DNA of 25,756 nucleotides from Armatimonadota bacterium. Its GTDB lineage: Bacteria > Vulcanimicrobiota > JACPDS01 > JBDRKI01. A program made the translations under genes and the position numbers. Positions 2,510-20,900 of this stretch are shown here, piece by piece. The stretch is taken from NCBI GenBank assembly GCA_043814095.1, contig JBDRKI010000044.1, forward strand, positions 1 through 25,756. Reading direction: 5' to 3'. Numbering within the stretch: the first letter of the stretch is position 1; every line of letters begins with the position of its first letter. Below the pieces are notes generated by a model. It was not told the origin of the DNA, made no database searches, and saw nothing but the letters and a program-made list of their open reading frames with translations.

Positions 2510-4207
2510 TTATTTCACAAACTGTTCGGCGTAATACTGCGGGTTTAATCTTTCGCCTGTCGCTTTCTCTATCATGTCATTCCAGTAATATTTCGCGCTC
2601 GGTTTAAATACATTCTCTTTCAGCCATGCTCCCGCTTCGGGCTTGTTCACAAAATCAACTTCTTTCCAATCGGAGACTTTAAGAACATCATTGCCTATTT
2701 TATACATAAGCTGTGAAGCGAACATTTCCCCTAAAAGGTAATTATGATAATACACGGGCGCGATGGTAAAGTGAATTTTTGCCGACCAGTCCGCATTATC
2801 TCTTCCTTCGGGCTGTTTCACAAACTGGTATCTTCCTTTTAAGTCCCACCAGAGATTGTTTAGGTCCTGATCTGGGTTTTCGTACAGCGCTTTCTCAAAA
2901 CGCGCCATTACCTGTGACCATCTTGCGAAAATAAGCATACCGAGTTTCTGGTTTTCCGCAAGAATTTCATTTACTTCGTCTATCCTGTCTTCGGGAAGGA
3001 GGCCCATTTTATTCAGCCAGTATGCGTTTTTTGTGCCTCTCTCCATCATCATTGCTATGGCTTCGGTTGTGAGTATATGGGCAGGGTCTCTTAATGTCCA
3101 GGTGAGCGTCATATCCAGGTTTTCGTCATATACCGCGTGACCGGATTCGTGAAGGAGTGTCCCTGTCCACTGTTCGTTATCTTTCATGTTAAGCAGCATT
3201 CTTACATCCCCTGATTTATCTATATGTGTGCAGTAAGCGTGGGGCTGTTTGCCCGGAGCTTCATAAAGGGAGCTTCTTTTAAGAATGCCGTCTATGGGCA
3301 GGCCTATGCCTTCGTAGAATTTGGTGACTATTTCTATATTGTTTTTGCCCTTGAAGAATTCATCAAGCTCCACAGTCTCACTTATATTCGGGGCGGACTG
3401 GAAATAGGGGTCAGCATAATCCCATACCATGACTTCTTCTTTTTCTATGTGGTGTTTCTTGGCCAGCGCCGTATCCATTTTGTCTTTTAATTTCTTAAAT
3501 GGTTCATCCGTAAGTACCGCCAGCTTATCAAATACTTCGTATAATTCATCCTGGTTTATCTCCCTTGCTTCCAGCATCATGGAATAATAATTATCGTAAC
3601 CTAACTGCTGCGCGGCTTTGTTTCTCAGCTTTACAAGATTGATTAATTTGGGGGCTACTTCATTTGCAACCTGTTTGCTTGCTTCCCACGCTTTCTGGCG
3701 CAGAACCACATCATCTGAAGAAGCAAGAATTTCGTAAATCTCGTTATTTGTCACTTCTTTGCCGTCAATCTTCCCGCGGAAAGTTGAGAATGTTTTTTCG
3801 GTTTCTGTCTCGGCGTCCACTATCTGCTTCAAGAGGTCTTTATCAATCTGTTTAGGCAGGTAGCTGTTGTATATGACATCTATGGATCTTTTGATTATAG
3901 GGTCATTTAACTGCCCGGATTCCTTAAACATCTTTATTTTCTCAAAATCTTCTTTATTTGAATGTATCGTGTCAAGTTCCAAGCTGTATCTGGCGTAAAT
4001 GTCGTAATCTTCGTCTTTACCCGATATGGACGCGTTCCAGTAAGCGATCCCCGCTTCTTTGAATACAGGCGATACTTTTGCTTCATAGTACTGTATGAAT
4101 TCACGGGCTTTGGTATCCATGTCTTCCCCTTCTGTGTTGTTTTGAGCACAAGCCATGCATATGCTCAAAATAAAAATAACCAGGAGCAGTAATGATAATT
4201 TTCTCAT
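2510..4207 (-). CDS. Exported zinc metallopeptidase, M2 (peptidyl-dipeptidase A)/M3-like family
   Basis: HExxH (LLHESGHAVY), downstream TEAIAM Glu ligand, KIHF...PVYYHNYLLGEMFASQL. Signal or lipoprotein-like N-terminus MRKLSLLLLVIFILSICMAC. GAGGAGGGG RBS before the ATG at 4207. Confidence 0.85.
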   Translation of the reverse strand: MRKLSLLLLVIFILSICMACAQNNTEGEDMDTKAREFIQYYEAKVSPVFKEAGIAYWNASISGKDEDYDIYARYSLELDTIHSNKEDFEKIKMFKESGQLNDPIIKRSIDVIYNSYLPKQIDKDLLKQIVDAETETEKTFSTFRGKIDGKEVTNNEIYEILASSDDVVLRQKAWEASKQVANEVAPKLINLVKLRNKAAQQLGYDNYYSMMLEAREINQDELYEVFDKLAVLTDEPFKKLKDKMDTALAKKHHIEKEEVMVWDYADPYFQSAPNISETVELDEFFKGKNNIEIVTKFYEGIGLPIDGILKRSSLYEAPGKQPHAYCTHIDKSGDVRMLLNMKDNEQWTGTLLHESGHAVYDENLDMTLTWTLRDPAHILTTEAIAMMMERGTKNAYWLNKMGLLPEDRIDEVNEILAENQKLGMLIFARWSQVMARFEKALYENPDQDLNNLWWDLKGRYQFVKQPEGRDNADWSAKIHFTIAPVYYHNYLLGEMFASQLMYKIGNDVLKVSDWKEVDFVNKPEAGAWLKENVFKPSAKYYWNDMIEKATGERLNPQYYAEQFVK

Positions 4208-4342
4208 AGAACCCCTCCTCAAATTTAGTTTGTACATTAATAAATTTGTATAGTCCCATAATAATTCCTTTATTTTCGAATTAATAAGCAGGGAAACATA
4301 TATAAAAAAAGAATAAATATAATTAATATACGGGGGTATGTT

Positions 4343-5188
4343 ATGCATTTAAGGAAAAAAGGCTTTACAATGATAGAACTGGTCGTGGTGATAGCCATTC
4401 TCGCTGTTTTTACGGCCATAGTGGTAGTTCAGTATAGAGGATATATAAAAAGGCAGCAGGTAAAAGCCGCCACGGAAGAGATTGTAGCAGAGCTCCGTCT
4501 TGCGCAGTCCGAAGCCGTAAAGTTTGAGCAGTATTATTCAGCTGTTTTTTCTCCAGGTAAGCTTGTTATAAAGAAGGATGTGGATGAGGCAGGCGCAGGC
4601 GGGGAGATAGTTAAAGAGATTTATTTTAATGTCCCGGTTGATATAAGTTTTTCAAACGGTAAAAATATTGTTATTTTTGATCCTTTCGGCAGGATAAATT
4701 TTTTATCCGGAGGGAACAGTTTAAACGGAGGAATATCCTTAAACTTGATTATTCCGCGTCAGCTTGCTGTGCGGAGGTTCATTAAAGCTTCTCCTAAGCT
4801 TATTATCGGCGCGGCGCACGCGAAGGAACCGGCCTTGATCGCACAATTCATTACCCCGAACCCGATCTTGACTCCGACTACAACTACAAATACGCCTACG
4901 TCGCCGGGTTTCATTGATCTGGGTCAACCGGCTATTACCCCAACACCCACCCCGACTCCAATTAGCAATCCAAAGGGACTTCCGGGCACAACTACGCCTA
5001 CGCCAGGTTCCACGCGTCCGCAAATTCCAAAACCGACAGCAACAGGACCCATGCCGACAATTACCCCGCCGGTTCCGCCTGTTCCTCCGGTCCCTATGAC
5101 AGAGACGGTTACAATTACCGTAACTTCAGGCGGTAAAAACGGTTATATTGATATACAGCCGGGTGGCAAGATAACTCACAGGTATTAA
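4343..5188 (+). CDS. Type IV prepilin-like protein, FimT/GspH type, with a Pro/Thr-rich insertion
   Basis: Class III signal KKG|FTMIELVVVIAILAV (G-1, F+1, E+5), ELRLAQSEAVK helix, IVIFDPFGR motif and a terminal TITVT...IDIQPGGKI hairpin. Confidence 0.85.
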   Translation: MHLRKKGFTMIELVVVIAILAVFTAIVVVQYRGYIKRQQVKAATEEIVAELRLAQSEAVKFEQYYSAVFSPGKLVIKKDVDEAGAGGEIVKEIYFNVPVDISFSNGKNIVIFDPFGRINFLSGGNSLNGGISLNLIIPRQLAVRRFIKASPKLIIGAAHAKEPALIAQFITPNPILTPTTTTNTPTSPGFIDLGQPAITPTPTPTPISNPKGLPGTTTPTPGSTRPQIPKPTATGPMPTITPPVPPVPPVPMTETVTITVTSGGKNGYIDIQPGGKITHRY

Positions 5189-5193
5189 GATTT

Positions 5194-5946
5194 ATGAATT
5201 TTAATAAAAAACATAAGGAAAGAAATAACGATAAGGGCATTGCCCTTATGACCACGCTTTTTATATCAATCCTTATATTTCTGCTTGCCGGAGGACTGCT
5301 TCTTTATACCCGGCGCGAATATCAAATAGGCGGCGGGCAGTTAACAAGCATGCAGGCGCAATATGCGGCAGATGCGGGTATTCAATATGCGATAGCAAGT
5401 ATGCAGAAAGTAATGGCGGATAATTCCGATTTTCAGGATATAAAAATCAAATCTTATTACTGGCCGTTAAGCAATACAAGTTTATACGACCCGAACAATT
5501 TGGAAGCATCAAGCACAGTAGCCGTGCCTCCATATAATCAACCTTACTGGTGGCCGCATACTCATACTGCTCTGCCCGGCGATCAAAGTTATATCTGGAA
5601 GTGTAAAAATTTATATAAATTAGCAAATGATCCCGAATGGAGATGGGTTCTGCGGTATAGCGGAGCTCTGCCTTCTTCATATAATTTAAATGTTCCGCTG
5701 AAAGGCATAGGCGCTGCCTCCGCTTCTTTTTTAACAGAATGGAGCTTAGACAATACAATCTCTTCTTTTAATATTGATGACGCGTCGGTTTACTTATGGT
5801 GGTATGATCAGCTTGTTACGATTAAATCCACGGGAGAGGTTGGATATGGATCTAATGTCGCGGGTAAAAGAAGTTATGAGGCGGAGCTTAAAATATTCGC
5901 CAAAAGAAAACCGACAAGGTGGTATTATGGCTCCAAGGGCTATTGA
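5194..5946 (+). CDS. PilX/GspK-like minor pilin
   Basis: DKG|IALMTTLFISILIFLLAGG, lacking E+5 as is typical of PilX/GspK. It also has QAQYAADAGIQYA (PilX N-terminal motif) and a C-terminal VTIKSTG. Confidence 0.8.
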   Translation: MNFNKKHKERNNDKGIALMTTLFISILIFLLAGGLLLYTRREYQIGGGQLTSMQAQYAADAGIQYAIASMQKVMADNSDFQDIKIKSYYWPLSNTSLYDPNNLEASSTVAVPPYNQPYWWPHTHTALPGDQSYIWKCKNLYKLANDPEWRWVLRYSGALPSSYNLNVPLKGIGAASASFLTEWSLDNTISSFNIDDASVYLWWYDQLVTIKSTGEVGYGSNVAGKRSYEAELKIFAKRKPTRWYYGSKGY

Positions 5947-6598
5947 CAAAAAAAACAAAACGGGTTTTTCCCTGCTTGAATTAATTGTGTCTTTGATGAT
6001 TATGGTAACTGTTGTATTCAGCGTGGCAGCTTTATTTGTGTTGAGCACAAAAACCATCAAGCAGTCATCGGATGTTGCAACTTTAACATTTTTAGCTCAG
6101 TTAAAAGCAGAAGAGCTGAAATCCAAACGTTTTTCTTTTTTGCCGGCAGAGACAGATCCCGCGCTTGCAGGAGGAGTTCATGAAGGTAATTTCGGACAGG
6201 AGTTAAATGACGCTGATTTTTCCCTGTATAATTACAAGGCGGAAATAGAAGATTCCATGAAAGACTCGAGCAATAAGACTACTCTGTTGAAAAAGGCGGT
6301 CATTACCGCATACGGTCCCGGAAAGTCCGGTAATGCGGGTACTCCAAGAGTTTCTTTGACCGTCTTTATTCGCTGTTATGACACCAGAAATAATATAGTT
6401 ATAGGGCCTCAGCCCTTTCCGCTTCAGCGCAGGGCCGCGACGGTATATACGGATAAAGTTGAAATAGTGAACGGACGACCGGTTGCCAGAAACTGGTCGG
6501 AAGAAGAAAAAACACTGGCTAAGTTTTACCCGGTGGAGATATTTGATAAAACAAAAAGAAACTTTAATAACTTGTTGACTAATTCACCTCAAATTTAG
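5927..6598 (+). CDS. PilV/GspI-like minor pilin
   Basis: KTG|FSLLELIVSLMIM class III signal and LAQLKAEELK helix. The ATG at 5927 places the cleavage motif near the N-terminus, preferred over 5774. Confidence 0.82.
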   Translation: MAPRAIDKKNKTGFSLLELIVSLMIMVTVVFSVAALFVLSTKTIKQSSDVATLTFLAQLKAEELKSKRFSFLPAETDPALAGGVHEGNFGQELNDADFSLYNYKAEIEDSMKDSSNKTTLLKKAVITAYGPGKSGNAGTPRVSLTVFIRCYDTRNNIVIGPQPFPLQRRAATVYTDKVEIVNGRPVARNWSEEEKTLAKFYPVEIFDKTKRNFNNLLTNSPQI

Positions 6599-6611
6599 GA
6601 GTTTTTTGCTT

Positions 6612-7301
6612 ATGACGGGATATACGCAAAAATACGAAAAAAACAAAGGCATGACCCTAATAGAAGTAATTATTTTTGTGGCTTTATTCTCTGTCTTTAT
6701 AATGTTTACGGCAATGATATTTAAAAACGCTGTTAATGTATACCGGTTCGGCAAAACCAGGACAGATATTAAACACAATGCCGCAATATCCCTTGATTCT
6801 ATATGCAGGGATCTGATGACCGCGCGGTATGTAGAAGTTGAAGGAGGCGCGCCTTATCCGGTATCTTTAAATAAATGTAATCTGGTTATAAATTACAGCA
6901 AAAAACAGGCTGATGATTCCACTAAACTCGGTATCATATACAGAATTGCCGTAGATAAAAATGGAGTAAAACAGTTAGTCAGAAAAAAGATAATAAGCAC
7001 GGTTTTGGCCGATAATCTGAGCATACCGTATGAGCCCGTGGCAGAGTATATAGATGATGTAATTGTTTCAAAAATTACAACCCCGGACCCCTATAATCCG
7101 GGTAAAAATCTTCATGAATCTTACAGAGTTAAAGTTACCGCTAAAATAGAAAAAGGCGCCGTTTTCGGGGTTCCGGAGGGAAAACTTGTTCTTATATCTC
7201 AGATTACCCCGCGTGCTTATACAGAAGATGCTGTTCTTAAGCCGGTTGTTATTTGTGACGGCACAGTTAGCGGCTTTTACGGTTTAAAACCGCAGCCGTA
7301 A
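6612..7301 (+). CDS. PilW/GspJ-like minor pilin
   Basis: NKG|MTLIEVIIFVALF class III signal and AAISLDSICRDLMTA helix. AGGAG RBS at about 6597. Confidence 0.82.
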   Translation: MTGYTQKYEKNKGMTLIEVIIFVALFSVFIMFTAMIFKNAVNVYRFGKTRTDIKHNAAISLDSICRDLMTARYVEVEGGAPYPVSLNKCNLVINYSKKQADDSTKLGIIYRIAVDKNGVKQLVRKKIISTVLADNLSIPYEPVAEYIDDVIVSKITTPDPYNPGKNLHESYRVKVTAKIEKGAVFGVPEGKLVLISQITPRAYTEDAVLKPVVICDGTVSGFYGLKPQP

Positions 7302-7336
7302 AAATATATAATACTGTTTATTATAGGAGATCAATT

Positions 7337-7855
7337 ATGAAAGAAAAAACATTTTACAGTAAATTAGACTTAATAAGAAAAATAAGGAAGAAATATCCCG
7401 CTCCGACAAAGCTTTTCTTTTTCTTGCTTGCCGGAGCTCCGTTTCTTTCGGGGCTGGCTTCTCCCGGCGCGCAATCCGGTTCGGAAGCCATGGCAGATGT
7501 GCCGCTTTATAAATCGGAACCCGTGAAAAACTGTAAAATAGTTTTAACAGATGAGGAAATAAGCATGCCTCAAAATGCGGTATCAGTGAAAGATACGGCA
7601 TTTGTTAATTGCCTGACGAACTGTAACTGCGCGACCATTAACTGTAACTGCAGTCAATATTTTAAGGAGTGTACTCTACTGGCGTGTCAATGCAATGCTA
7701 ACCATCAGTGGGGGGGATACGGGGCCTGCGGCGGCTACCCCTGTGACTGTTACCATAACTGTAACTGTGTTACACAGTGTCAGTGTGATCAAAATACCGG
7801 CAGCGCAATTTTTGAATGCAATTGCGTGACAAACTGCCAGAATCCAAATATGTAG
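7337..7855 (+). CDS. Cys-rich CxC-repeat protein, candidate radical-SAM-modified precursor (RiPP-like)
   Basis: 172 aa with an AGGAG RBS. Basic then hydrophobic N-terminus. Residues 92-167 hold 18 Cys, including seven CxC motifs (CNC x4, CQC x2, CDC). It lies 21 nt upstream of the radical SAM genes. Confidence 0.7.
   Translation: MKEKTFYSKLDLIRKIRKKYPAPTKLFFFLLAGAPFLSGLASPGAQSGSEAMADVPLYKSEPVKNCKIVLTDEEISMPQNAVSVKDTAFVNCLTNCNCATINCNCSQYFKECTLLACQCNANHQWGGYGACGGYPCDCYHNCNCVTQCQCDQNTGSAIFECNCVTNCQNPNM
7619..7768 (+). repeat. Short coding repeats AACTGTAACTG(C/T) encoding NCNC
   Basis: Copies at 7619-7630, 7640-7651 and 7757-7768. Confidence 0.8.
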
Positions 7856-7876: not shown

Positions 7877-10800
7877 ATGAAAAAGGCGGTATTTTTTTCC
7901 CCTCCTTTAGATGATTTTTGGACAATACCTTCTTATAATATAAATCTTTTAGCCACAATGGCTTCAAAAACAGCCAATTGTCAGGTTTTTGTTTTTGACG
8001 GTGTCCGTTATTACAATGAAAAATACGGCCCTTTTTCCGTCACGGCGCTTTCACGTGCCGCTAAATTTTTAGATGAAGTAATAAATGAGATTGAAAAGTA
8101 TACCCCCGATATGCTGTTTATGACATCAACCCTGTATTCACTGCCATTTATAAGCGAATTTGCGAAGTCCTATAAAAGACGCAATCCCAAAACAATAATT
8201 ATTTTAGGCGGCATTGCCGCGACGGCGATACCCGGGGAATTGTCAAGAAGAATACCGGCGATAGATCATTTTGTCGCAGGCGAAGCAGAATATCTGATAA
8301 TAGACTTGATCAATAAATTAAGCGGGAAAACGAACAGCTTAACAGAAAAAATAATAACTAACAATCAAGACATAAACCTGGATAAAGTTCCATATGTTGA
8401 CTATGATTATTTAAACAGAACCTTGTCCTGTTTATATATTGAAACAAGCCGCGGATGTCATTATGAATGTAGCTTTTGTTCGGCGAATACCGTTCAAAAA
8501 ACTTACAGAAAAAAAAGCATTTCCAGGGTTATAAACGAAATTATTTTTTATAAATCAAAGTATAGTACTAAAAATTTTACGCTTATTGATAATAATTTTA
8601 CGAATGATAATGTCTGGCTTAGAGAATTCTGTATAGCCTTAATAGAAGAGAAATTAAATATATTTTGGGACTGTTCTTCGCGCATAGATGCTTTAAATAA
8701 AAAAGACCTGTATTTAATGAAAAAGAGCGGCTGTTACAGTATTTTTATCGGACTTGAAAGCATATTTTTAAAAAATTTAAGTTTTTGCCGCAAGAATATG
8801 AAAACCATAGATTTAAACTTAATTAAAGAATGTCAAAAAATGGGTATAAAACCGAAGGTATCTTTGATAACCGGTTTTCCCGGTGATACAGAAGCTCAGA
8901 TCAATAAAATTTTTAATTATGCCAGCCGGCTTGAGAAAGAAGGCGCGGAAGCGCATCTTTCATCTTTAGCCGTTCTGCCGGGTTCCGCATTGTATGAAAA
9001 ATTTAAAAAGGGAAAGATGGAAATATTTTTTTCAGACAAAGGATTAACGGCCAAAAACGAGATTATAAATATGTTTGCAGATAAGTATAAGAAATTCAGC
9101 AATTTTGCACCCTATATGTGGTTTGTGAAAAACAAGAACTTGAAAAACAGCGAACTGGAAAAAATAATAAATAATAATTCAAAAATATTAGCCGGTAAAT
9201 CTAATAAAGAAACAGAAATAAGCGATTTTAGAGCAAATTACAAAATTAACCAGCGCTCTAAAAAGGATTTTTTGGTTATAGTTCCTGCGGCGGCCAAAAT
9301 GGATTACGGAATGACTTATTTTCCGATATATTTTACCACGCGTCTCAGGGCAAAAGGCGTAGAAGCGGTACTGTTTAGCGAGGAATATTTTCCGGGTCAT
9401 GATGAGGATTCGGCAAGGGAAAACGAATGCCTGGATTTTTACGTGAAAACAGTTAACGATTTATGTTCAAAAAATGTTTTGATATATACAATGATATCTA
9501 ATTTTCCTTTCGTAATTGAACTTGTCAAAAAACTTAAAACCGACAGTCCGGGGTTGAAAATAATTTTAATAGGCGAAGTCTATAAATTTTTAAGCGAAAA
9601 AAACCAATATATTCTTAAAAACGCCGATTTTGTAATGGATTCTTTTTCTGAGGAAAGCATTGAGAAACTCGCATATTATCTTAAAGGCGGTCATAAAAAA
9701 ATACAAAAAACAGGAATAAAGCCGTTCTTATTTCGCGGCTTTGCTGATTATGACGCGATACTTAATTATAATAATTTTAAAAAGGGAATTGTGGAGATCA
9801 ATAACGGCTGCGGTCATAATTGCAGGTTTTGTGCCAGAACCGATAAAAAAGTTTATTTAAAAGATCCCGCCTTCGCCGTTGAATATCTTAAGTATATGAA
9901 AAAGCGTTTTTCGCTGGAGGAATTTATTTTTTCCGACAGTTCTATATCGGCAGATTATAACTGGCTGAAAAAATTCTGTTCCCTCCTGATTAAAGAAAAG
10001 CTGGATATACGCTGGAACGCGCTTTCAAGGGCGGATACGGTTGACAATTATTTGCTCGGGTTGATGAAACAGGCGGGATGCTATCTTATAAGTTTTGGCT
10101 TGGAAAGCGCAAATGAGTCTTCGCTTAAATTTTTGGGAAAAGCCAGGAATATAAAAGAATATATGGAAAAAAGTTACAGGAATATAGAACTATCCCTCAA
10201 AAATAATATTTCCGTTCATGCTTCGCTAATTACCGGCCTGCCTGTTGAGACCGAAAAAGAAATTAAAAATACCGCTAAATTAGCCGGAAAATTAAATGAT
10301 CTCGGCGTGGTTGTCAAGCTGGAACTTCTTTCGGTAGCGGCGGGAAGCGCTTTGTGGCATTATTGGAAGTGTGGTAAAATTCAACTGGTTGAGATTAAAA
10401 ATGAGAATTTGAAAAAATGGGTAAGAAGGGTTAACTGTTCCCCTCTTTTTTTCCTTGACAGGTACTCTGATTGTCCGGATATCGCGCCTTTTAGCTGGAG
10501 AATAAAAAATGAATATATTCCGGATGATTATTTAGAAAATTTATTATATGAAGAATTCCGCGCTTTTGCTCCCAATAAAGGGCGCAGTAAATTAATGTAC
10601 AGGAGAACGGAAGCATCCCCGGACGGACGGTTTAAGGTTATGGAAAACCTGGATTTTTTTGTAAAAGAAATACGCGTTAACGCGGCGCCCAGAAGCGTCA
10701 AGGGATCAGCCGGCGAAATGGACTGTTCTTTATTTGTGGACAGAAAAAAAGCGCAGGATTTTAAAATTAATAACGATATTAAATTTACAAATACCGTAAT

Positions 10801-10921
10801 CGTTTTAAAATCAGTGCTGGATCCAGGCAGATATAAAGTTTCGGTTGTTTCAAAATCCGGAGACAATAATTTATTTGTGCGTTTTGTCGATTTTGCCGGC
10901 GAACAGTATATATGCGTTTGA
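7877..10921 (+). CDS. Tandem two-module cobalamin-binding-type (class B-like) radical SAM protein
   Basis: Two CxxxCxxC motifs: ETSRGCHYECSFC (Cys codons 8456-8479) and EINNGCGHNCRFC (9809-9832). Each is preceded by a B12-binding-like domain (IILGGIAAT...DHFVAGEAE; more degenerate in module 2) and followed by SR(I/A)D, GCY.I..GLES and SLITG.P.(D/E)T motifs. Confidence 0.88.
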   Translation: MKKAVFFSPPLDDFWTIPSYNINLLATMASKTANCQVFVFDGVRYYNEKYGPFSVTALSRAAKFLDEVINEIEKYTPDMLFMTSTLYSLPFISEFAKSYKRRNPKTIIILGGIAATAIPGELSRRIPAIDHFVAGEAEYLIIDLINKLSGKTNSLTEKIITNNQDINLDKVPYVDYDYLNRTLSCLYIETSRGCHYECSFCSANTVQKTYRKKSISRVINEIIFYKSKYSTKNFTLIDNNFTNDNVWLREFCIALIEEKLNIFWDCSSRIDALNKKDLYLMKKSGCYSIFIGLESIFLKNLSFCRKNMKTIDLNLIKECQKMGIKPKVSLITGFPGDTEAQINKIFNYASRLEKEGAEAHLSSLAVLPGSALYEKFKKGKMEIFFSDKGLTAKNEIINMFADKYKKFSNFAPYMWFVKNKNLKNSELEKIINNNSKILAGKSNKETEISDFRANYKINQRSKKDFLVIVPAAAKMDYGMTYFPIYFTTRLRAKGVEAVLFSEEYFPGHDEDSARENECLDFYVKTVNDLCSKNVLIYTMISNFPFVIELVKKLKTDSPGLKIILIGEVYKFLSEKNQYILKNADFVMDSFSEESIEKLAYYLKGGHKKIQKTGIKPFLFRGFADYDAILNYNNFKKGIVEINNGCGHNCRFCARTDKKVYLKDPAFAVEYLKYMKKRFSLEEFIFSDSSISADYNWLKKFCSLLIKEKLDIRWNALSRADTVDNYLLGLMKQAGCYLISFGLESANESSLKFLGKARNIKEYMEKSYRNIELSLKNNISVHASLITGLPVETEKEIKNTAKLAGKLNDLGVVVKLELLSVAAGSALWHYWKCGKIQLVEIKNENLKKWVRRVNCSPLFFLDRYSDCPDIAPFSWRIKNEYIPDDYLENLLYEEFRAFAPNKGRSKLMYRRTEASPDGRFKVMENLDFFVKEIRVNAAPRSVKGSAGEMDCSLFVDRKKAQDFKINNDIKFTNTVIVLKSVLDPGRYKVSVVSKSGDNNLFVRFVDFAGEQYICV

Positions 10922-10939: not shown

Positions 10940-11992
10940 ATGAAAACAAAAATAATTACAGTTTTATTTATCTTAATGACCGCGTTTTTAATAAGCCCCT
11001 TATGTGCGGACAGAGACTGGGATGTTGCCATGGACGGCGCCATGAAATTTTTAAATGATCCGCCGCCGTGCAGAGTCAGTTTCAGGATTAATATGTATAA
11101 CGACGAGAAAGATGTAATAGATGCGGTAACTTATTTTAATAGAGAAACTTTATACCGTACGGAAGGTAAAATTTACAGCCGCGGCAGGGTTTATAAAATA
11201 AACGAACTGTCCTCAGAGATGAAAAAATTGAATTATTTTTCCATAGAACCGCAGAGAAAATACCCTTCGCTTAGAGTTAACGGCATGGAATCATCCACTA
11301 ATATAACAGATATGGCGCCCTATCCGGTTGCAGGGCTTATGGAAAAATTTCAACCCGCAAATAAGTCTAAGTCTGAAAAAGTAGCCCGTCAGAGCGTAAG
11401 AAAAACCACATATAACGGCATACCCAGTCTTTATGGCGAGTTTGATAGCAGATACGGCAAAGCGTGCGGATGGGTAAATATGGAAAATTCCTGTCCGCTG
11501 GAATTAAGATTTCCGCTCCCCGGAGGTCAGAATTTCGTGACAATCCAGTACTTAGATTATAAAGAAGTTCCGCCGCGCATGGTTCCTTTCAGGTGCAGGG
11601 GATATATAAATAAGACCCTTTGCTGGGAGGCAAGCATCAGCAATATAGAGATGAATGTTGATATGCCGCTGGATATATTTAACCCCAAGCTGTTTAATAA
11701 GAAAAGTTTGAACAAAATGCTGGAAGAGCACGCCGCTCTTGAAAAAATGAGAGCGGAATATATGGCTAAAAAAGGAGTTAAGCCGGAAGCCAGTCTTTCT
11801 CCGGGGCAAACCGGCCAGGTGCAGCCGGTATCAACGCCTATGCCGTCCCCCGGACGGGTTTCGGCACAGAAGGAAGTTCCAGGAGTTAAAAAGACCCATG
11901 GAAATATCTTATGGAAAATTATTTTTATAATTATTTTCATGATTGGAGTTTCGGCAATTGTCTATTATTATTTAAAAAGAAAAAAAGAATGA
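10940..11992 (+). CDS. Exported membrane-anchored protein, possible LolA-like/lipoprotein-sorting fold
   Basis: Signal peptide MKTKIITVLFILMTAFLISPLCA, a YLDYKEV...MVPFR...ISNIEMNVDMPLDIFNP segment typical of LolA-like domains, a Pro-rich linker, and a C-terminal TM helix with a KRKKE tail. Confidence 0.55.
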   Translation: MKTKIITVLFILMTAFLISPLCADRDWDVAMDGAMKFLNDPPPCRVSFRINMYNDEKDVIDAVTYFNRETLYRTEGKIYSRGRVYKINELSSEMKKLNYFSIEPQRKYPSLRVNGMESSTNITDMAPYPVAGLMEKFQPANKSKSEKVARQSVRKTTYNGIPSLYGEFDSRYGKACGWVNMENSCPLELRFPLPGGQNFVTIQYLDYKEVPPRMVPFRCRGYINKTLCWEASISNIEMNVDMPLDIFNPKLFNKKSLNKMLEEHAALEKMRAEYMAKKGVKPEASLSPGQTGQVQPVSTPMPSPGRVSAQKEVPGVKKTHGNILWKIIFIIIFMIGVSAIVYYYLKRKKE

Positions 11993-12008
11993 TATAAAAA
12001 ATAATATT

Positions 12009-13652
12009 ATGAAAATAACAGTAATAGAACCCTATAATATGCCGTATGCACCGCGGCACAGTTCGTCTCTTATTAATGCGTATATTTATTCTTTTTTAAA
12101 GAAGTATGCCTGCGAATTCAAGTTTATTGACTGCGGCGGAATAATAAATATTAATCCCTTCGATGATAATATATCCGAAAACCAGGTGCGTTGGCTTGAA
12201 GAAGTCGTGTTTTTGGCAGAAAAAGAAAAGCCCGATATAGTACTGTTTAATTACAAAACACTTGCCCTGCCGTTCATAAACGAGGTCTCGCTTATGATAA
12301 AGCAAATTCTTCCGGATGCAGTTACGGTGTTGGGCGGTTCGTCTTTAGAGCTGGCGGAAGAATTAATTGATTTGAATTTTGCCGTTGATTATTTTTTAGT
12401 CGGGGATATTGAATTAACCCTGAAAATTTTTTTAGATGACTTTAAAAATAAATCTTTAGAAAATATTATCTACGGCTGCGGGGAAGTTAAGAATTTAGAT
12501 TCGGTTACTCCAAGCTTTGATTTATACGAAAACAGTAATTTGGAGCTTTTACCGTATGATATAAGCCGCGGGTGTGCGTTTAACTGTGAATTTTGCACTA
12601 AATCCGGAAGCAGGTTCCGGAATAAATCCGTGGGGAAAGTAGTCTGCGACCTAAAAAAATTAAAAGAAAAATATAAAGTTAGGCAGATTGGATTTGTTGA
12701 TGAATTTTTCAATTTTGACCGGAAATACCTGTATGAATTTTGTTCGGAAATCAGGAAAAATACCACGGGTGTTGATTTTGCGTGTAATTGGGTCTTAAAT
12801 GAGCCGATCGATTTTGAGCTAATAAAAGAGCTTAAAGCCGCAGGATTGAAGTGCGTGGCTTTCAGTATAGAAAGTTTCCCTGGACGAGAGTTTTCCAGTG
12901 CGGAATTTTATGACAAACAGTATTTATTTGAATATTTAAAAGAAAGCATCATCAAAATAAAGAAATTAAATATAGCGGTTATGGTAAATATTCTGACTAA
13001 TTCATATAATGACACGAGAGAAAGTTTTGAACTGGTGGATAATTTTATAAAAGACGTGACTCCGCACGCCGAACTTTATATAGGACAGGTTTTACTTTTG
13101 CCTCCAAGCCCCCTGTGGCGATTATATAAAAAAGGGGGGATGAAAATAATACCGCGGGCAAAAAACGATTTTCCGGTTCAGAAAGAACACCCGTTCAGCA
13201 AGAAATACAGAGAAACCGTGATTTTTTCGCCGCAATACTGGATGGTAGATAATAAATATATTTACCCAGATATAAAAAGAATATTAAAATATGAAGATTA
13301 TTTATATATTAAGCAAAGGGAACCGGTGCAGAATAGGTATTCATATATTTTCACGGGAGGAGATTTAAAGGCACGGGTAAAATCCGATAAATATATCAGC
13401 GCCTTGAGAGTTAACGCTGCCCAGCGAAAAGCAGTTATTTATAAAGATTTTTATTTAAAGGTTCAGGAGAAAGTGGATGTATTAATTGACGATGTAAAAA
13501 TGGGCGAATTTTATTTGGATAAAGGGTTGTCATTTGATATTTATGATATCAAACTGGAGCACATGATAGAAGCCGGTAGGCATACAATAGAATTTGCGGC
13601 AAAACAGGATAATGTTTTTGTTGATAAAATGGAATTAATAACGAAAGATTAA
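12009..13652 (+). CDS. Cobalamin-binding-type radical SAM protein
   Basis: VTVLGGSS...DYFLVGDIE N-terminal domain, ISRGCAFNCEFC (Cys codons 12573-12596), GFVDEFFN, FSIES. Confidence 0.85.
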   Translation: MKITVIEPYNMPYAPRHSSSLINAYIYSFLKKYACEFKFIDCGGIININPFDDNISENQVRWLEEVVFLAEKEKPDIVLFNYKTLALPFINEVSLMIKQILPDAVTVLGGSSLELAEELIDLNFAVDYFLVGDIELTLKIFLDDFKNKSLENIIYGCGEVKNLDSVTPSFDLYENSNLELLPYDISRGCAFNCEFCTKSGSRFRNKSVGKVVCDLKKLKEKYKVRQIGFVDEFFNFDRKYLYEFCSEIRKNTTGVDFACNWVLNEPIDFELIKELKAAGLKCVAFSIESFPGREFSSAEFYDKQYLFEYLKESIIKIKKLNIAVMVNILTNSYNDTRESFELVDNFIKDVTPHAELYIGQVLLLPPSPLWRLYKKGGMKIIPRAKNDFPVQKEHPFSKKYRETVIFSPQYWMVDNKYIYPDIKRILKYEDYLYIKQREPVQNRYSYIFTGGDLKARVKSDKYISALRVNAAQRKAVIYKDFYLKVQEKVDVLIDDVKMGEFYLDKGLSFDIYDIKLEHMIEAGRHTIEFAAKQDNVFVDKMELITKD

Positions 13653-13665
13653 AAAGGGTATAGGT

Positions 13666-14940
13666 ATGTATATAAATGAGGTTTTAGAGCTGTCCGCGCC
13701 CGTATTCTGTTTCTTGGAAATAACAAATCTTTGCAACAATAAATGCCCGGGCTGCGGGAATGTTTTTGAACACGGGATTCAAAAACAGCTTTCTCTGGCG
13801 CAATGGGAAAAGGCGATAAACGAGATAAGCGAACAGGTAAGCTCTGTCAGGGTAACGGGCGGTGAAGCTTCTTTAAGAGAAGATTTTTGGGAGATTTTAG
13901 ACCTGCTGGAAAATAAAAATTTATGTTTTTCGGTGTTCAGTAATGGCAGATGGAAAAGTCCTGAAAAATTTCTGGATAAAATAAAAAGCTATAAATATTT
14001 CAAAGGATTTTTAATTTCTCTGCACGGACACAATGCTGAATCTCACGATAAATGGAGCGGCGTGGAGGGAAGCTTTAATGAAACAACCGGCAATTTAAAA
14101 TTGGCCGCCGGTAAAAACATAATATTCAGCACGAACGCGGTTATTTCGCCGTATAATTATAATTTTATTAAGGAAATAACGGATCTGGCTTTTTCTTTGG
14201 GCGCGCGCGGCGCCGTATTTAACCGTTTTTATCAAAGCGGTGAAGAAAGTTTAAAAGCGGTGGTTTCGGAAAAAGAGCTTTTATCCGCGATTTCTTCCAT
14301 AGAAAAATTAAAAAGAAGTAATTATAAAAACTTTATAAATTACGGAAACTGCATCCCTCACTGTTTTTGTCATTCTGCTTCAAACGGATGCACAACGGGA
14401 ACCACCTTCTGCACTATTGATCCTTTTGGCAATATGAGACCCTGTAATCACGCAGAGTATATTGCCGGCAACATATTAGAAAAAGGTTTTTTAAATATAT
14501 GGAAATCCGAAAAAATGAGAATCTGGCGCGGTTATATTCCCGGGGAATGCAAAAAATGCGCCGCTTTCTTAAACTGTCACGGCGGATGCCGTGCTTTAGG
14601 CATGAAATACGGACAAGATCCGCTGATGAAAACCCCGATAGTGAAAACCGAAACGATTGAAGACATTCCGGAAGTTAAAATAAATAAACATACAAAAGTC
14701 CGGTTAAACACAACCAAAATAAGACAGGAAAAATTCGGGTATTTATTAATGAATAATGACAGTTTTTCGGCAGTAAAAAAAGAAGCATATGATTTTTTAG
14801 CGAATCTTAACCGTTTTTCCAGTATTGAAGAAATTTATAAAGAAAAAGGCGAAGAAGCGGTTGCTTTGTTATATAAATTATATAACAGGGGAATAATTGC
14901 GTTTGAAAATTCTCAAGAAAAGACAGAAGTTCCTGCTTAG
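13666..14940 (+). CDS. Radical SAM/SPASM domain protein with C-terminal PqqD/RRE-like domain; candidate peptide maturase
   Basis: LEITNLCNNKCPGC, TGGEA, FSNG, ISLHG. SPASM cysteines GCTTG..FCTIDPFGNMRPC...GNI...CKKC...CHGGCRA. C-terminal IRQEKFGYLLM... segment. Confidence 0.88.
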   Translation: MYINEVLELSAPVFCFLEITNLCNNKCPGCGNVFEHGIQKQLSLAQWEKAINEISEQVSSVRVTGGEASLREDFWEILDLLENKNLCFSVFSNGRWKSPEKFLDKIKSYKYFKGFLISLHGHNAESHDKWSGVEGSFNETTGNLKLAAGKNIIFSTNAVISPYNYNFIKEITDLAFSLGARGAVFNRFYQSGEESLKAVVSEKELLSAISSIEKLKRSNYKNFINYGNCIPHCFCHSASNGCTTGTTFCTIDPFGNMRPCNHAEYIAGNILEKGFLNIWKSEKMRIWRGYIPGECKKCAAFLNCHGGCRALGMKYGQDPLMKTPIVKTETIEDIPEVKINKHTKVRLNTTKIRQEKFGYLLMNNDSFSAVKKEAYDFLANLNRFSSIEEIYKEKGEEAVALLYKLYNRGIIAFENSQEKTEVPA

Positions 14941-16724
14941 TTTATATGATTTTTCTTTATTTTTTCGTATAAAGGCATAAACTCTTCTTTTTCGGGGTCC
15001 GTTGCTTTCGGGATGAAAGTTTTGAACTGCTCATATGCTCCGGCAGTATCTCCCAGCGAATAGTAGATTTTTCCCAGCATAAGGTTAAGCCATGTGTTTT
15101 GCGGATTTTTCATCAGGGCTTTATCCAGATACTGTTTTGACTTTGTATAATCATTCAGGTTTAAATAGGCAAAAGCTATCCCGGTATTGTAATCATAAGA
15201 TGGATTATATCTCATAGCCGTATTTGACCAAAAAATAACATTATTCCAGTTTTTTTGCATCATTGCCAGCAGTATGAGGTTGTCAAAAATATTTTTGTAA
15301 TGCGTGGAATATTTTAATGCTTCCGTAAGGTTTTTTTTCGCCGCTGAGGTTTGTTTGGTTTGTATATAAACATAGCCCAGGCTGTTGTGGATATATTCGT
15401 CTTTTAATCCTGAATTTACCGCTTTTTTAAAATAATCTTCGGCGATTGAATAATTATCATAATAAGCGTTTATTAATCCCATAGCATATAAATAATAAGG
15501 GTTGTCGGGATATTTTTGTGTAAGAAGATTAAACTCAGCCGCTGTTTTCTGTAGCTGGTTTTGACTTTCCATGCAGTTTATGTACATTTTTAATGCGTAA
15601 GAATTATTTTCTTTTGAAAATGCCTGCTTAAACAGATCGGCAGCCTTATTGATATTTTTTTTTGAATATTCGGCCTGGCCGTTGTTGATAAGTCGCTGGT
15701 TTGCAGATATAGAATATTTATGGCTCCCGGGCGCGTCTTTAATTCGGGGCGGATTTAATTTCGGCGAAGCAGATTTTGTTTCTTTTATTTTTTTTATTGT
15801 ATAACTTAAGTTTACATCTATTTTGCTCTTATCTAATTCGGGGTTGCTCAAGTAAAAGGAAAAGGGCACCCTGTTATTCTCCCAGAGAGTTATGTAATTA
15901 TCCCGTATTTCCCCGAAACAGCAGTACCGTGATTCCGGATTAAATCTTCCCAGCGTGGGATCTATGTAAAGCCATCCGTATTCGGGCACATAAGCTTGTG
16001 CCCAGGAATGTGTTTTTGTGAATTTCCCGTCTTTATCGTTATAAAATATTCCCGCTTCGAATTTTGCGGGTATATTTATGCTCCTGCACAAGGCGATTAA
16101 GAGAAGGACTGAATCGGCGCACTGGGCCTTACGGGTATTTAATACTTCCAGCGCGCTTGAACATTTTTTATCTTCTGCGTAAAGAAGTTTTGTTCTCGTA
16201 AAATCGTATAATTTTATAAGCTTGTAATAATCATTGCTCTCATTTTTTGTTATATCAAGAGCTGTTTTCTTGATATTTTCCGAGTTGGTTTCTATGTCCG
16301 GCTCTTCTTTTAAATGCAAGCCGTCTATAGCGGTCTTATTCTGCCGTAGTTCCGGTTTGTTTTCAATATGAAATATTTTAGCATTAAAATTTATTCTTAT
16401 GTTTGCTTCCTTCCCGGGATTAAATTCGTTTATTTTAATAAGATATGCCTTGTTATTATTATGGGGGATGGAAATTGTTTGGTATTTATGATTTATAGAA
16501 AAGTTATAAATTTTCTGGCGGGGGTATATATTCTTTATCTCGGGGACAATACAGAAAAGTTCGGAAGGCGCGTCCGATCCGTTTTTAAAATTAATATTAT
16601 ATGAAATATGGTAAATTGAACAAGTTTTTAAACCTGATCCATTAAGATTATTGCGGCTAAAAATAGAAAAAACGGAACAAAAAACAGCTAAAATTATAAA
16701 TGCCGCTATAAGTATTTTTTTCAT
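14937..16724 (-). CDS. Exported transglutaminase-like cysteine protease domain plus TPR repeats
   Basis: Signal peptide MKKILIAAFIILAVFCSVFS, triad motifs AQCADSVLLLIALCRSINIPA / HSWAQAYVP / GWLYIDPT, and C-terminal TPR-like repeats (YYLYAMGLINA, IHNSLGYVY, LNLMLGKIYYSLGD). Confidence 0.85.
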   Translation of the reverse strand: MKKILIAAFIILAVFCSVFSIFSRNNLNGSGLKTCSIYHISYNINFKNGSDAPSELFCIVPEIKNIYPRQKIYNFSINHKYQTISIPHNNNKAYLIKINEFNPGKEANIRINFNAKIFHIENKPELRQNKTAIDGLHLKEEPDIETNSENIKKTALDITKNESNDYYKLIKLYDFTRTKLLYAEDKKCSSALEVLNTRKAQCADSVLLLIALCRSINIPAKFEAGIFYNDKDGKFTKTHSWAQAYVPEYGWLYIDPTLGRFNPESRYCCFGEIRDNYITLWENNRVPFSFYLSNPELDKSKIDVNLSYTIKKIKETKSASPKLNPPRIKDAPGSHKYSISANQRLINNGQAEYSKKNINKAADLFKQAFSKENNSYALKMYINCMESQNQLQKTAAEFNLLTQKYPDNPYYLYAMGLINAYYDNYSIAEDYFKKAVNSGLKDEYIHNSLGYVYIQTKQTSAAKKNLTEALKYSTHYKNIFDNLILLAMMQKNWNNVIFWSNTAMRYNPSYDYNTGIAFAYLNLNDYTKSKQYLDKALMKNPQNTWLNLMLGKIYYSLGDTAGAYEQFKTFIPKATDPEKEEFMPLYEKIKKNHIN

Positions 16725-16859
16725 AAATAATAACTTTAATTTTACTTTTTAAAATCCTTCAAAAATTCTTAATAGCAGGGATTTATGCTTATTTCTAAAA
16801 GAATATACAGCAAAATAATATTGTATTATAACGATAAGTTAAATGCGGACGGTTGGATT

Positions 16860-17708
16860 ATGGATTGTCTTAATATTGAAAAATACAAATATCATAAGAA
16901 CTTATTCGGCATAAAAGAAACTCCCTATATTAAACTTTTTGAAGAATTTATTTGCAGTTCAAACGATTTTTTTATAGAATGTTCGTTAAAAATAAATAAA
17001 AACAAGGTGCATCCCTTGCGCATAAATGTTTATTATTGGAACAAAAACGATGTAAAGGAAAATTTTGATAAAATATTGCGATTTTTTGAAAAAATGGGGA
17101 AACTCCCGGATGTTTCCATAAATTCCGGGTTTTACGATAAAATTATTGATAAGGATATGAATTTTAATAAAGTGCTGGGCGTTGCCGTCGGGATAGATTT
17201 TAGACAGGATAGTGCTTTATCGAGAGTAAAATTATGGACAGGCTTTAAGGATTACCCGGAAAAAGAACAACAGGTTTTATCGCTTCACGGATTTAATAAA
17301 GACATAAAAAATATTTTGACTTTGTTTGATTCGGATATGTTTTCTTTCGGCTTTGACTTTTATTTTAACGGCAAAAGCAGAATAAAAATTTATCCGCATA
17401 TACAGGAAAGTCTTAAAAGCATGGCTCTCCGCGAGCGCCTGCGCGCGTATTTTCATGAAAGCGTATATGATTTATTGGATAATTCCTGCAGGATTCATCT
17501 GTCTTTTGACGGCGCCGACTATAAAAAGATAATTCATTTTTTCCCACATCCTTATTCTTATACTGATTTTATAAGAAAGCTGAATTTTAAACAACTGGAA
17601 AAACTGCACGAACAAATTTATAAAAAATACAATAAATACAGAATAATAGCGGTGGCGGAAGATGAAATTATCAGCGGAAAAATCACAAATGCAGGTTTAT
17701 ATTATTAA
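16860..17708 (+). CDS. LynF/TruF/PatF-family (cyanobactin-type ABBA) peptide prenyltransferase
   Basis: HKNLFGI...FEEF, IECSLKI...HPLRIN, FFEKM...MNFNKV..VAVGIDFR...SRVKLW...DYPEK, FGFDFYFNGKSRIKIYP and a terminal ...LYY follow the motif order I recall for this family. The start is either 16785 or 16860. Confidence 0.8.
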   Translation: MDCLNIEKYKYHKNLFGIKETPYIKLFEEFICSSNDFFIECSLKINKNKVHPLRINVYYWNKNDVKENFDKILRFFEKMGKLPDVSINSGFYDKIIDKDMNFNKVLGVAVGIDFRQDSALSRVKLWTGFKDYPEKEQQVLSLHGFNKDIKNILTLFDSDMFSFGFDFYFNGKSRIKIYPHIQESLKSMALRERLRAYFHESVYDLLDNSCRIHLSFDGADYKKIIHFFPHPYSYTDFIRKLNFKQLEKLHEQIYKKYNKYRIIAVAEDEIISGKITNAGLYY

Positions 17709-19816: not shown

Positions 19817-20701
19817 ATGTTTAAGAAAATATTAATACCTACGGATTTTTCAGAACCGTCAGTTAAGATTATTGAAAGGATACCACAGTTTAAAGCCATG
19901 GGGACAGAAGAAGTTATTATTTTCTTTGCTTTAAGGACTCTTGACGCTTTCATGGGGGAGACTTATATAGAATTCAGCTATATTGAAGATGTTGAGAATT
20001 ACGCTAAAAAAGAAATGGCAAAGATGAAGGAATACCTTGAGAATCACGGGTTGAAAGCAAAGATACTGATTGAATTCGGAAATCCTTCCATCTTGATTCT
20101 TGACGCGGCAAGAAACGAAGACGTCAACCTTATAATCATGTCGTCGCACGGGCACGGAGCGGGGCGTGATTTTCACCTGGGAAGCGTTGCCCATTCGGTC
20201 CTTCATCACGCGCAGCGCCCCGTTTTAATTGAAAAAGTTAAATGGGAAAAAGATAAAAACGGCAAAGATGTAGCCAGATATATTTCAAAACAGGCTTACT
20301 CAAAAGTACTGTTACCGACCGATTTTTCCGAGCGTGCAGAGTATGCTCTTTCCGCACTTAAGTCTTTTGTGAAGATGGGAGCCAAAGAAGTTGCGCTTCT
20401 TCACGTACAGGATGTGGGAAAACTGGTTCCCCATCTTGAGTATAAGATATTTGAGTTTGACTCAATAGACAATGAAAGACTTAACAAGGTAAAAACGGAA
20501 CTTGACCCCTTAGGGCTTAAAGTTAAAACCATTGTAGATCACGGAGTTCCCGCTGATGAGATAATTAAAAAAGCAGAGGAAGTAAAAGCTAATCTTATTA
20601 TAATGGGTGCTTACGGCAGAAATCCTTTTGCCGAGTTTTTCTTGGGTTCAGTAAGTGAACGCGTTGTCCAGAAAAGCTCTAAAGATGTTCTGGTAATATA
20701 A
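19817..20701 (+). CDS. Universal stress protein, two UspA domains
   Basis: KKILIPTDFS...LIIMSSHG...LGSVAHSVL, followed by KVLLPTDFS...LIIMGAYG...LGSVSERVVQKS. Confidence 0.92.
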   Translation: MFKKILIPTDFSEPSVKIIERIPQFKAMGTEEVIIFFALRTLDAFMGETYIEFSYIEDVENYAKKEMAKMKEYLENHGLKAKILIEFGNPSILILDAARNEDVNLIIMSSHGHGAGRDFHLGSVAHSVLHHAQRPVLIEKVKWEKDKNGKDVARYISKQAYSKVLLPTDFSERAEYALSALKSFVKMGAKEVALLHVQDVGKLVPHLEYKIFEFDSIDNERLNKVKTELDPLGLKVKTIVDHGVPADEIIKKAEEVKANLIIMGAYGRNPFAEFFLGSVSERVVQKSSKDVLVI

Positions 20702-20809
20702 AGGGCCTAAAAATACAACAGAAAATTTGTTCGACTTAGATTTTTATTTGAGGAAAAAATATATTTTTTATAACCGGAATCCCTTGATGCATATATTTTT
20801 CCTATTCAA

Positions 20810-20838
20810 TTGACACCATATTACAATAGATTTAAACT
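20810..20838 (+). promoter_or_regulatory. Sigma70-type promoter for the second USP gene
   Basis: TTGACA (20810-20815), 17-nt spacer, TAAACT (20833-20838). Confidence 0.65.
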
Positions 20839-20900
20839 ATAAGTGGAGCCTGTATTTTTTCTCTTCTTTCTTAATCGGCTTCAGAAAGGAGGGGGGTGTT

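Follow-up and report, generated by a model that had tools for sequence, protein, structure and literature searches.

The Cys/Asn-rich gene, its family and its operon

The stretch of DNA analyzed here (the window, 25,756 nucleotides, contig JBDRKI010000044.1 of an Armatimonadota bacterium) carries a small open reading frame (ORF) rich in Cys and Asn at positions 7337 to 7855 of the forward strand, at the head of an operon of radical S-adenosylmethionine (rSAM) enzymes; we consider it probable, at roughly 60%, that the product of this ORF is the precursor protein in a rare system resembling those of RiPPs (peptides made by the ribosome and altered after translation), and that this precursor undergoes modification in the cytoplasm before export. 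The gene starts with ATG and encodes 172 amino acids (stop codon included in the coordinates), and a ribosome-binding site, AGGAG at 7325 to 7329, is separated from the ATG by 7 nt. Four homologues align over the full length of the protein, indicating that the ORF is a gene and not a chance reading frame. A promoter-like site upstream (TTTAAA/TTAAAA, a spacer of 17 to 18 nt, and TATAAT; 7283 to 7312, forward strand; 10 of 12 consensus matches in a scan) was rejected, because such sites are within chance expectation, the region holding 56 compared with 41.5 ± 7.1 in shuffles. The reads of four DNA runs yielded only short, low-depth identical fragments and chance matches, which are uninformative on variation and expression.

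The protein has the three parts described in the first-pass annotation, all found as quoted there. Residues 1 to 41 (7337 to 7459) form a basic N-region of net charge +7 and a hydrophobic stretch of 15 to 16 residues ending in G-L-A, delimited by hydropathy and charge counts in all five members of the family. A spacer with a single Cys (C66) follows, and residues 51 to 77 (7487 to 7567) make up a conserved leader motif, the predicted recognition sequence according to the alignment and to the confident interface of a complex model described below. The Cys/Asn-rich core occupies residues 89 to 172 (7601 to 7852). There are 19 Cys in total, C66 and 18 others within residues 86 to 172, and counting confirmed both the 18 Cys of the core and its seven C-x-C motifs with Asn, Gln, or Asp in the middle (CNC four times, CQC twice, and CDC once). 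Adjacent CC is absent from the core in all five members. When the 87-residue core was shuffled 100,000 times, C[NQD]C occurred 0.98 times on average and no shuffle reached seven; in the same shuffles, the probability of seven or more CxC was 0.026 and that of no adjacent CC was 0.012. These results indicate that the alternating Cys pattern is not a by-product of composition. The precursor matches no Pfam or NCBIfam family (Pfam checked even to an E value of 10), in agreement with the earlier remark that it does not correspond to SCIFF or other named precursor families. An AlphaFold2 model built from the five-row alignment had no usable fold (pLDDT [predicted value of the local distance difference test], 34.6; predicted template modeling [TM] score, 0.15), and the Atlas feature search with the precursor yielded no usable match, all structure rows having TM scores below 0.3.

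When 5.8 billion protein clusters were searched with a word index, four homologues of 158 to 169 amino acids emerged, with 99 to 100% coverage; their full-length BLASTP identities are 61, 52, 46, and 34%, corresponding to 63, 53, 48, and 37% in the family alignment. A profile search of 1.84 billion representatives returned the same four as the only real homologues, and two extra profile matches (P0009 and P0010) from this exhaustive search were dropped as translated tandem repeats. The precursor family is thus five unnamed proteins in about 15 billion searched. Searches of 400 other genomes of the phylum and of one genome per species for 185,579 species did not retrieve it, and the sole metagenome locus found is a fragment of about 1.6 kb (L002, 1,583 bp) carrying the most distant member.

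Alignment of the five members reveals four conserved blocks, namely, the basic N-region (with Y7, K9, and K18 invariant), the hydrophobic stretch, the leader motif (with P56, K64, K67, L70, T71, and D72 invariant), and the ends of the core. The latter are conserved as FVNCL.NCNC and CNCV.NCQ.PN; in the window protein the core starts with FVNCLTNCNC and its tail reads ECNCVTNCQ.PN, both nearly invariant in the family. Between these ends, the length and sequence of the core differ among members, with C-x-C (x is N, Q, D, or H) kept and CC never occurring. The expected combination of a conserved leader and a variable core is therefore not supported: the leader motif is conserved, but so are the ends of the core, and only its middle varies. 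The C-terminal tail C-Q-x-P-N-[LM] (7838 to 7852) is invariant.

In all five members, a net charge of +6 to +10 precedes a hydrophobic stretch of about 15 residues, whose mean Kyte-Doolittle (KD) hydropathy is 1.2 to 1.9 over 19 residues, compared with 2.7 to 2.95 for the anchors of two neighboring proteins. This N terminus appears to be signal-peptide-like or signal-anchor-like. The AMA|D cleavage site proposed in the first-pass annotation is present (A51-M52-A53|D54) but did not hold up, because it is not conserved (the homologues have KIGE, GIGE, GIME, and SSLE) and also falls within the stretch docked on the enzyme in the complex model. Position 41, where a small residue is kept across the five members (A/A/S/A/A), is a better candidate for the signal peptidase site. 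Residues 1 to 25 (7337 to 7411), conserved in the five members and predicted to be helical, exceed what the n-region of a Sec signal needs. Elsewhere, the host genome encodes BamA, secretins, and prepilin peptidase, showing that the host has a periplasm and fiber machinery.

The precursor gene is the first of its operon, with gaps of 22, 19, 17, and 14 nt through to the gene of a SPASM enzyme at 13666 to 14940, all on the forward strand. It is followed by a 1,014-amino-acid fusion of two B12-binding/rSAM modules (7877 to 10921; Pfam Radical_SAM, 2.1e-33 in two stretches; B12-binding, 5.2e-13) with a CxxxCxxC motif in each module and no signal peptide; its best NCBIfam matches, ApyD (174.9 bits against a cut-off of 750) and rSAM_ocin_1 (142.2 bits), are far under the cut-offs. 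Both halves of the fusion align with a 547-amino-acid B12-binding rSAM enzyme (12009 to 13652; assigned by Pfam, NCBIfam, and alignment), for which the best NCBIfam matches are a ladderane-type model (63.1 bits), HpnJ, and HpnR, again all far under the cut-offs. The best family matches of these B12-rSAM enzymes are spread over RiPP, lipid, and cofactor enzymes. CxxxCxxC is present in all four rSAM modules of the operon. The fusion (9920 to 10921) and the 547-amino-acid enzyme (13380 to 13652) have in common a C-terminal β-rich domain of about 80 residues starting with RVNAA.R, which is assigned to no family and might bind substrate.

The two partners outside the rSAM group both have signal peptides, and the rSAM enzymes have none. 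One, a 350-amino-acid protein encoded between the fusion and the 547-amino-acid enzyme (10940 to 11992, forward strand), consists of an N-terminal signal peptide, a LolA/TP_0789-like domain (about residues 20 to 255), a Pro/Ser-rich linker, and a C-terminal membrane anchor; in the Atlas structure search, it had TM scores of 0.45 to 0.53 to outer-membrane lipoprotein-sorting clusters (LolA/TP_0789/MucB_RseB). It belongs to no family, and a single homologue was found (38% identity). The other, a 595-amino-acid protein encoded convergently to the operon (14937 to 16724, reverse strand), has a signal peptide, a transglutaminase-like core in which C202, H239, and D255 are present (Pfam Transglut_core, 3.7e-19), and a C-terminal TPR region, and is a candidate periplasmic leader protease or cross-linker. 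Beside such an exported transglutaminase-like enzyme, the conserved Gln of the precursor tail could be an acyl-donor site for cross-linking, as distinct from proteolysis.

The SPASM enzyme and predicted recognition of the leader motif

The 424-amino-acid SPASM enzyme carries the rSAM motif CxxxCxxC at C23/C27/C30 and a CxxCx5Cx3C motif at C295 to C308 (Pfam SPASM, 8.3e-9). Eight Cys (C229, C233, C242, C260, C295, C298, C304, and C308) are invariant in 14 homologues, and C249 is nearly so; the enzyme thus carries the Cys for two auxiliary clusters, as in ranthipeptide and sactipeptide enzymes. Its nearest solved relatives are peptide maturases, namely, PqqE (6e-27), SkfB (3e-22), SuiB, CteB, and anSME. 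It stays under the cut-offs of the family models, with 41.3 bits for PapB (cut-off, 340), 70.4 for AlbA (850), 56.2 for SkfB (300), and 62.9 for StsB (625).

The last approximately 90 residues of the enzyme are conserved through its wider family, and this C-terminal domain had been singled out by the first-pass annotation as the partner for a docking test. Model comparisons suggest that residues 334 to 424 (14665 to 14937) adopt a winged-helix fold like that of the RiPP recognition element (RRE), a likeness of structure and not of sequence. When modeled in isolation with AlphaFold2 (13 sequences, pLDDT 65.8), the domain consists of several short strands followed by three helices. The leading Foldseek matches are RRE domains, with PbtF (8t19_A; E value of 4.5e-3, probability of 1.00) accompanied by McbB, LynD, TigE, ThcOx, lasso B1, and PqqD. 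Using VIA-align, the domain could be superimposed on residues 3 to 86 of TigE (Z score of 8.6, root mean square deviation [RMSD] of 2.5 Å over 76 residues), the RRE of PbtF (Z score of 8.6, 2.3 Å over 75 residues), lasso B1 (Z score of 8.2, 2.4 Å over 71 residues), and PqqD (Z score of 7.7, 2.7 Å over 80 residues), and RiPP enzymes or RRE domains account for 13 of the best 25 rows as judged from entry titles.

The complex of the full-length SPASM enzyme with precursor residues 44 to 110 was modeled, and the pair passed against its controls, with a median interface score (ipSAE) of 0.67 compared with 0.00 for the best control; 58 of 80 solved complexes and 2 of 110 mismatched pairs attain the mark applied to this score. 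At least 60% of the contacts are shared between runs, and the pLDDT of the partner is 47 to 48. In the confident interface, enzyme residues 334 to 405 face precursor residues 51 to 60 and 63 to 77, and precursor residues 68 to 71 run along the enzyme strand formed by residues 337 to 341. The model supports the idea that the leader motif may bind the RRE-like domain of the SPASM enzyme.

Homologous loci and the upstream pseudopilin cassette

The association of the precursor with these enzymes appears to recur in every homologue locus that could be judged. In L002, the precursor gene is followed by one whose product begins like the B12-rSAM fusion (pairwise E value of 5e-4, aligned from residue 1 to residue 1) and is preceded by one with 60% identity to the TPR part of the transglutaminase-like protein. 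Close orthologues of the SPASM enzyme number five (70, 66, 62, 48, and 46% identity), after which identity drops to 40% or less. The 62% orthologue and precursor P0004 are found on contigs of equal size (11,433 bases; P0004/P0015), and a member of the cluster of the 48% orthologue and the longest contig of precursor P0005 both measure 26,133 bases (P0005/P0133); likewise, the 66% orthologue and the sole homologue of the LolA-like protein lie on contigs of 6,422 bases each. The link is thus shown by both homologues on contigs larger than 10 kb, the other two being on contigs of 3.2 kb or less, too short for this comparison. This recurrence supports the earlier proposal that the protein is a substrate of the neighboring rSAM enzymes, and the opposite pattern named in the first-pass annotation, homologues mostly without rSAM neighbors, is not seen in L002 or with P0004 and P0005.

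Directly upstream of the precursor gene, on the same strand and possibly linked to the system, is a cassette of four minor pseudopilin genes (4343 to 7301), recognized by the prepilin N-methylation motif and by weak NCBIfam matches, all under the cut-offs. The products are GspH-like (4343 to 5188), GspK-like (5194 to 5946), ComGE/F-like (about 5927 to 6598), and Verru_Chthon-C-like (6606 to 7301). The third ORF as listed (5774 to 6598) has a TTG start and overlaps the second (5194 to 5946) by about 170 nt; translation more probably begins at an internal Met at about 5927, since the prepilin motif follows it. In L002, no pseudopilin gene lies directly upstream of the precursor, its place being taken by the transglutaminase/TPR gene.

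More distant relatives of the SPASM enzyme (32 to 40% identity) were examined in 58 genome loci (L003 to L060), mostly Chloroflexota and Desulfobacterales records. This wider clade retains the C-terminal RRE-like domain, and its SPASM gene follows P-loop (STAND-like) proteins of about 960 amino acids in 38 and of about 510 amino acids in 29 of the 48 strong-match loci. No Cys-rich partner was seen in the 58 loci, where the Cys-rich ORFs retrieved looked spurious, lay in GC-rich DNA, and bore no resemblance to the NCNC core, and no obvious small precursor stands out in the clade. The other window proteins have no homologue there, except for B12-rSAM enzymes in a single locus, L032 (1 to 14304). 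L032 combines four B12-rSAM genes with a SPASM enzyme bearing an RRE-like tail, and a glycogen synthase gene lies mid-locus. Tandem ORFs at 4051 to 4770 and 4640 to 5347, directly before the SPASM gene, have signal-like segments and His/Thr/Asn-rich tails; these putative signal-bearing precursors are thus not Cys-rich. A likeness between their leaders and that of the window precursor, seen by eye, was discarded, as the leader hidden Markov model retrieved neither ORF and its sole match in L032 (E value of 8.9) was to another ORF on the opposite strand.

L032 also contains a pseudopilin cassette (11043 to 14304, minus strand), whose four genes have their best NCBIfam matches in the same order as in the window, and prepilin motifs occur in none of the rest of the 59 loci scanned. 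The cassette therefore recurs in two of two loci having B12-rSAM enzymes, the window and L032, a recurrence that we treat as a lead and not as a result. On the other side of the operon, beyond the transglutaminase-like gene, the window encodes a DUF5838 protein (16785 to 17708) and an OPT oligopeptide transporter (17786 to 19801), followed by two adjacent genes with tandem double universal-stress-protein domains (19817 to 21791), which the DUF5838 gene also precedes.

Proposed pathway, its alternatives, and related systems

From these data we infer how the chemistry, export route, trimming, and function of the product could fit together. The nascent chain would stay in the cytoplasm, where the RRE-like domain of the SPASM enzyme may grip the leader motif (residues 51 to 77, approximately) by β-strand addition. 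The core would then be fed to the SPASM active site, and Cys sulfur would most likely be joined to side-chain carbons of neighboring Asn, Gln, or Asp residues, giving ranthionine-type thioethers in which the NxxC unit would be NCNC and the CxxN/Q unit would be C-[LV]-T-[NQ]. Thioether formation is the most likely chemistry of the SPASM enzyme because its solved relatives (PqqE, SkfB, SuiB, CteB, and anSME) are peptide maturases; by analogy, NCNC has the NxxC form used by NxxcB, and C-[LV]-T-[NQ] is similar to CxxQ/D, the CrpA motif. The three B12-rSAM modules could add further marks, most likely C-methyl groups, after which the basic and hydrophobic N terminus would carry the modified chain through Sec. 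Trimming might fall to signal peptidase, to the exported cysteine-protease/TPR protein with its transglutaminase-like core, or to both. Finally, the membrane-anchored LolA-like protein may hold the product, whose site of action would be the periplasm or farther out and which may bind metal; a metal-binding end product is compatible with the precursor reading.

Several observations weigh against this pathway. For the RRE-like domain, no Foldseek match reaches an E value of 0.001 or lower, the VIA-align Z score of 8.6 is near the typical best Z score of unmatched models, Pfam PqqD matches none of the 14 SPASM family members, and the best PDB sequence-profile match to PqqD has an E value of 0.18. 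In the complex model, the fold of the partner is uncertain (pLDDT below 50) and the core is not confidently placed; moreover, since solved RRE-leader complexes exist, the pass may reflect likeness to these and not binding of this particular copy. The best matches of the B12-rSAM enzymes include lipid enzymes (ladderane-type and HpnJ), so these modules may not act on protein. The wider SPASM family retaining the RRE-like domain mostly neighbors P-loop proteins, with no Cys-rich ORF close by and a B12-rSAM gene near the SPASM gene in only 1 of its 58 loci (L032). The co-location of precursors P0004 and P0005 with SPASM orthologues is deduced from equal contig size in bases. With regard to export, a conserved basic N-region of 25 residues is unusual for a Sec signal, and P0005 has Pro directly after the aligned cleavage position (+1).

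LolA-like folds carry acyl chains, and such a fold is assigned to the 350-amino-acid protein; together with the lipid-type B12-rSAM models that best match the 547-amino-acid enzyme (ladderane-type at 63.1 bits, HpnJ, and HpnR, under the cut-offs) and with the SPASM enzyme being the one that has an RRE-like domain and the one that was docked, this would fit a composite cluster in which only the SPASM enzyme acts on the Cys-rich protein, and the B12-rSAM enzymes and the LolA-like protein make or carry a modified lipid or small molecule. We consider this arrangement unlikely, as the B12-rSAM fusion comes immediately after the precursor both here (22-nt gap) and in L002, RiPP-type models score equally or higher for the fusion (ApyD, 174.9; rSAM_ocin_1, 142.2), and the operon contains no lipid-synthesis genes. 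CxC is a classic metallothionein spacing, which raises the question of whether the protein is an ordinary secreted or membrane-anchored Cys-rich protein, binding metal or forming disulfides through free thiols, with the rSAM enzymes serving another substrate. The signal-like N terminus, the two exported proteins of the cluster, and the failure to find any fold or family for the precursor would agree with such a metallothionein-like protein. Against it stand the repeated co-occurrence of precursor and enzymes in the judgeable loci, a conserved leader motif between the signal-like part and the core that docks on the enzyme in the model, the lack of any other candidate substrate ORF in the operon, and the absence of a metallothionein match in Pfam and NCBIfam or of an Atlas look-alike, so that this explanation appears very unlikely.

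It is also conceivable that the N terminus is an uncleaved signal anchor and that the modified protein stays tethered to the membrane and works with the pseudopilin cassette, for example, as cargo or a partner of the pseudopilus tip. The long conserved basic N-region and the hydrophobic stretch of 16 to 19 residues point in this direction, as does the cassette itself, directly upstream here and beside B12-rSAM genes in L032; nevertheless, the stretch is only moderately hydrophobic (KD of 1.2 to 1.9 against 2.7 to 2.95) and contains Gly and Pro, and L002 lacks a pseudopilin gene directly upstream, which makes a permanent anchor very improbable. A broader proposal is that a four-gene pseudopilin cassette (GspH-, GspK-, ComGE/PilV-, and Verru_Chthon-C-like) coupled to a Sec-exported protein rebuilt by B12- and SPASM-rSAM enzymes represents an undescribed class, whose product would serve a type II secretion or type IV pilus-like fiber as cargo or as its working tip, e.g., a metal-binding or redox-active head. 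A literature search found no description of a pseudopilin/rSAM pairing, and we regard this proposal as speculative, with the odds clearly against it.

Under the preferred reading of an exported, enzymatically modified precursor, the locus would work much like the ranthipeptide, CrpA, and QhpC systems of Cys cross-linking, and its export logic would be akin to that of the bufferins. Ranthipeptide precursors are 40 to 50 amino acids long, compared with 172 here. The present cluster further differs from ranthipeptides in its B12-rSAM enzymes, its 18 core Cys, the lack of an ABC/C39 exporter in the cluster, and a score of 41.3 against the 340-bit cut-off of the PapB model. The ranthipeptide systems (NxxcB, PapB with freyrasin, and CteB with SCIFF) have leader-binding SPASM enzymes that join Cys sulfur to β or γ carbons of Asn/Asp/Gln-type residues, as proposed here for a core in which NCNC is formally an NxxC unit; NxxcB forms a β-thioether from Cys to Asn, with Gln and Asp tolerated (PMC9389541).

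The CrpC enzyme (PMC13692751) introduces ranthionine links into the Cys-rich protein CrpA of Methanococcus voltae at a CxxQ/D motif. In both systems, the Cys-rich substrate is of protein size, with a leader-like part at its N terminus and repetitive Cys in its C-terminal region, the adjacent gene encodes a SPASM enzyme with an RRE (RRE-like in the window), and the Cys motif lies beside Gln/Asp-type acceptors; the AlphaFold model of CrpA is of low confidence too. The RRE is N-terminal in CrpC and C-terminal here, and the window system is further set apart by its C-x-C units with N, Q, or D, three B12-rSAM modules, a signal-like N terminus, exported partners, and a bacterial host. The CrpC family model (TIGR04463, rSAM_vs_C_rich; cut-off, 525 bits) has seven matches in the whole genome, each below the cut-off (56.8 bits at best) and located on contigs other than that of the window.

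QhpC is a small Cys-rich protein that receives several Cys-to-Asp/Glu thioethers from the rSAM enzyme QhpD while still cytoplasmic, being moved to the periplasm afterwards, and that is held by a leader which a dedicated protease trims (PMC7876137). Its leader is removed in the cytoplasm, its export uses an ABC transporter, and it becomes an enzyme subunit, whereas protein family scans of the window revealed no dehydrogenase subunits, subtilisin, or ABC transporter. Bufferins (BufA with MNIO BufB/BufC) are RiPPs with Sec signal peptides (PMC11626156) and are, like the window protein, unusually long Cys-bearing precursors, in their case modified in the cytoplasm and binding metal in the periplasm. 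The enzymes there are of the MNIO/DUF2063 type, in contrast to the rSAM enzymes here, where the signal peptide is moreover a prediction; no MNIO (DUF692), DUF2063, or DUF2282/BufA2-type Pfam family occurs among the 20 window proteins scanned. Judged by family models, which are far under the cut-off or absent, the system is a member neither of the ranthipeptide/CrpA/QhpC cross-linking type nor of the bufferins. We rate as new the precursor family with its C-N-C lattice, the C-terminal RRE on a SPASM enzyme, the three B12 modules, and the exported LolA-like and transglutaminase-like partners, with the qualification that Dataset 1 of the CrpA report (bacterial rSAM-associated Cys-rich proteins) might list the precursor family.

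Experiments have only lately demonstrated that rSAM enzymes cross-link Cys-rich substrates of protein size, with CrpA/CrpC in 2026 and QhpC earlier, and Sec-exported RiPP precursors are still described as rare, bufferins being the known case. The locus would combine cross-linking of a Cys-rich protein with Sec export, three B12 modules acting on one substrate, and two dedicated extracytoplasmic partners. The pseudopilin neighborhood, if real, would in addition tie peptide modification to fiber-type secretion. As a compact set of five genes, the operon bears on the chemistry that an alternating C-N-C-N lattice can support, on the passage of cross-linked chains through Sec, and on metal handling in groundwater-type anaerobes.

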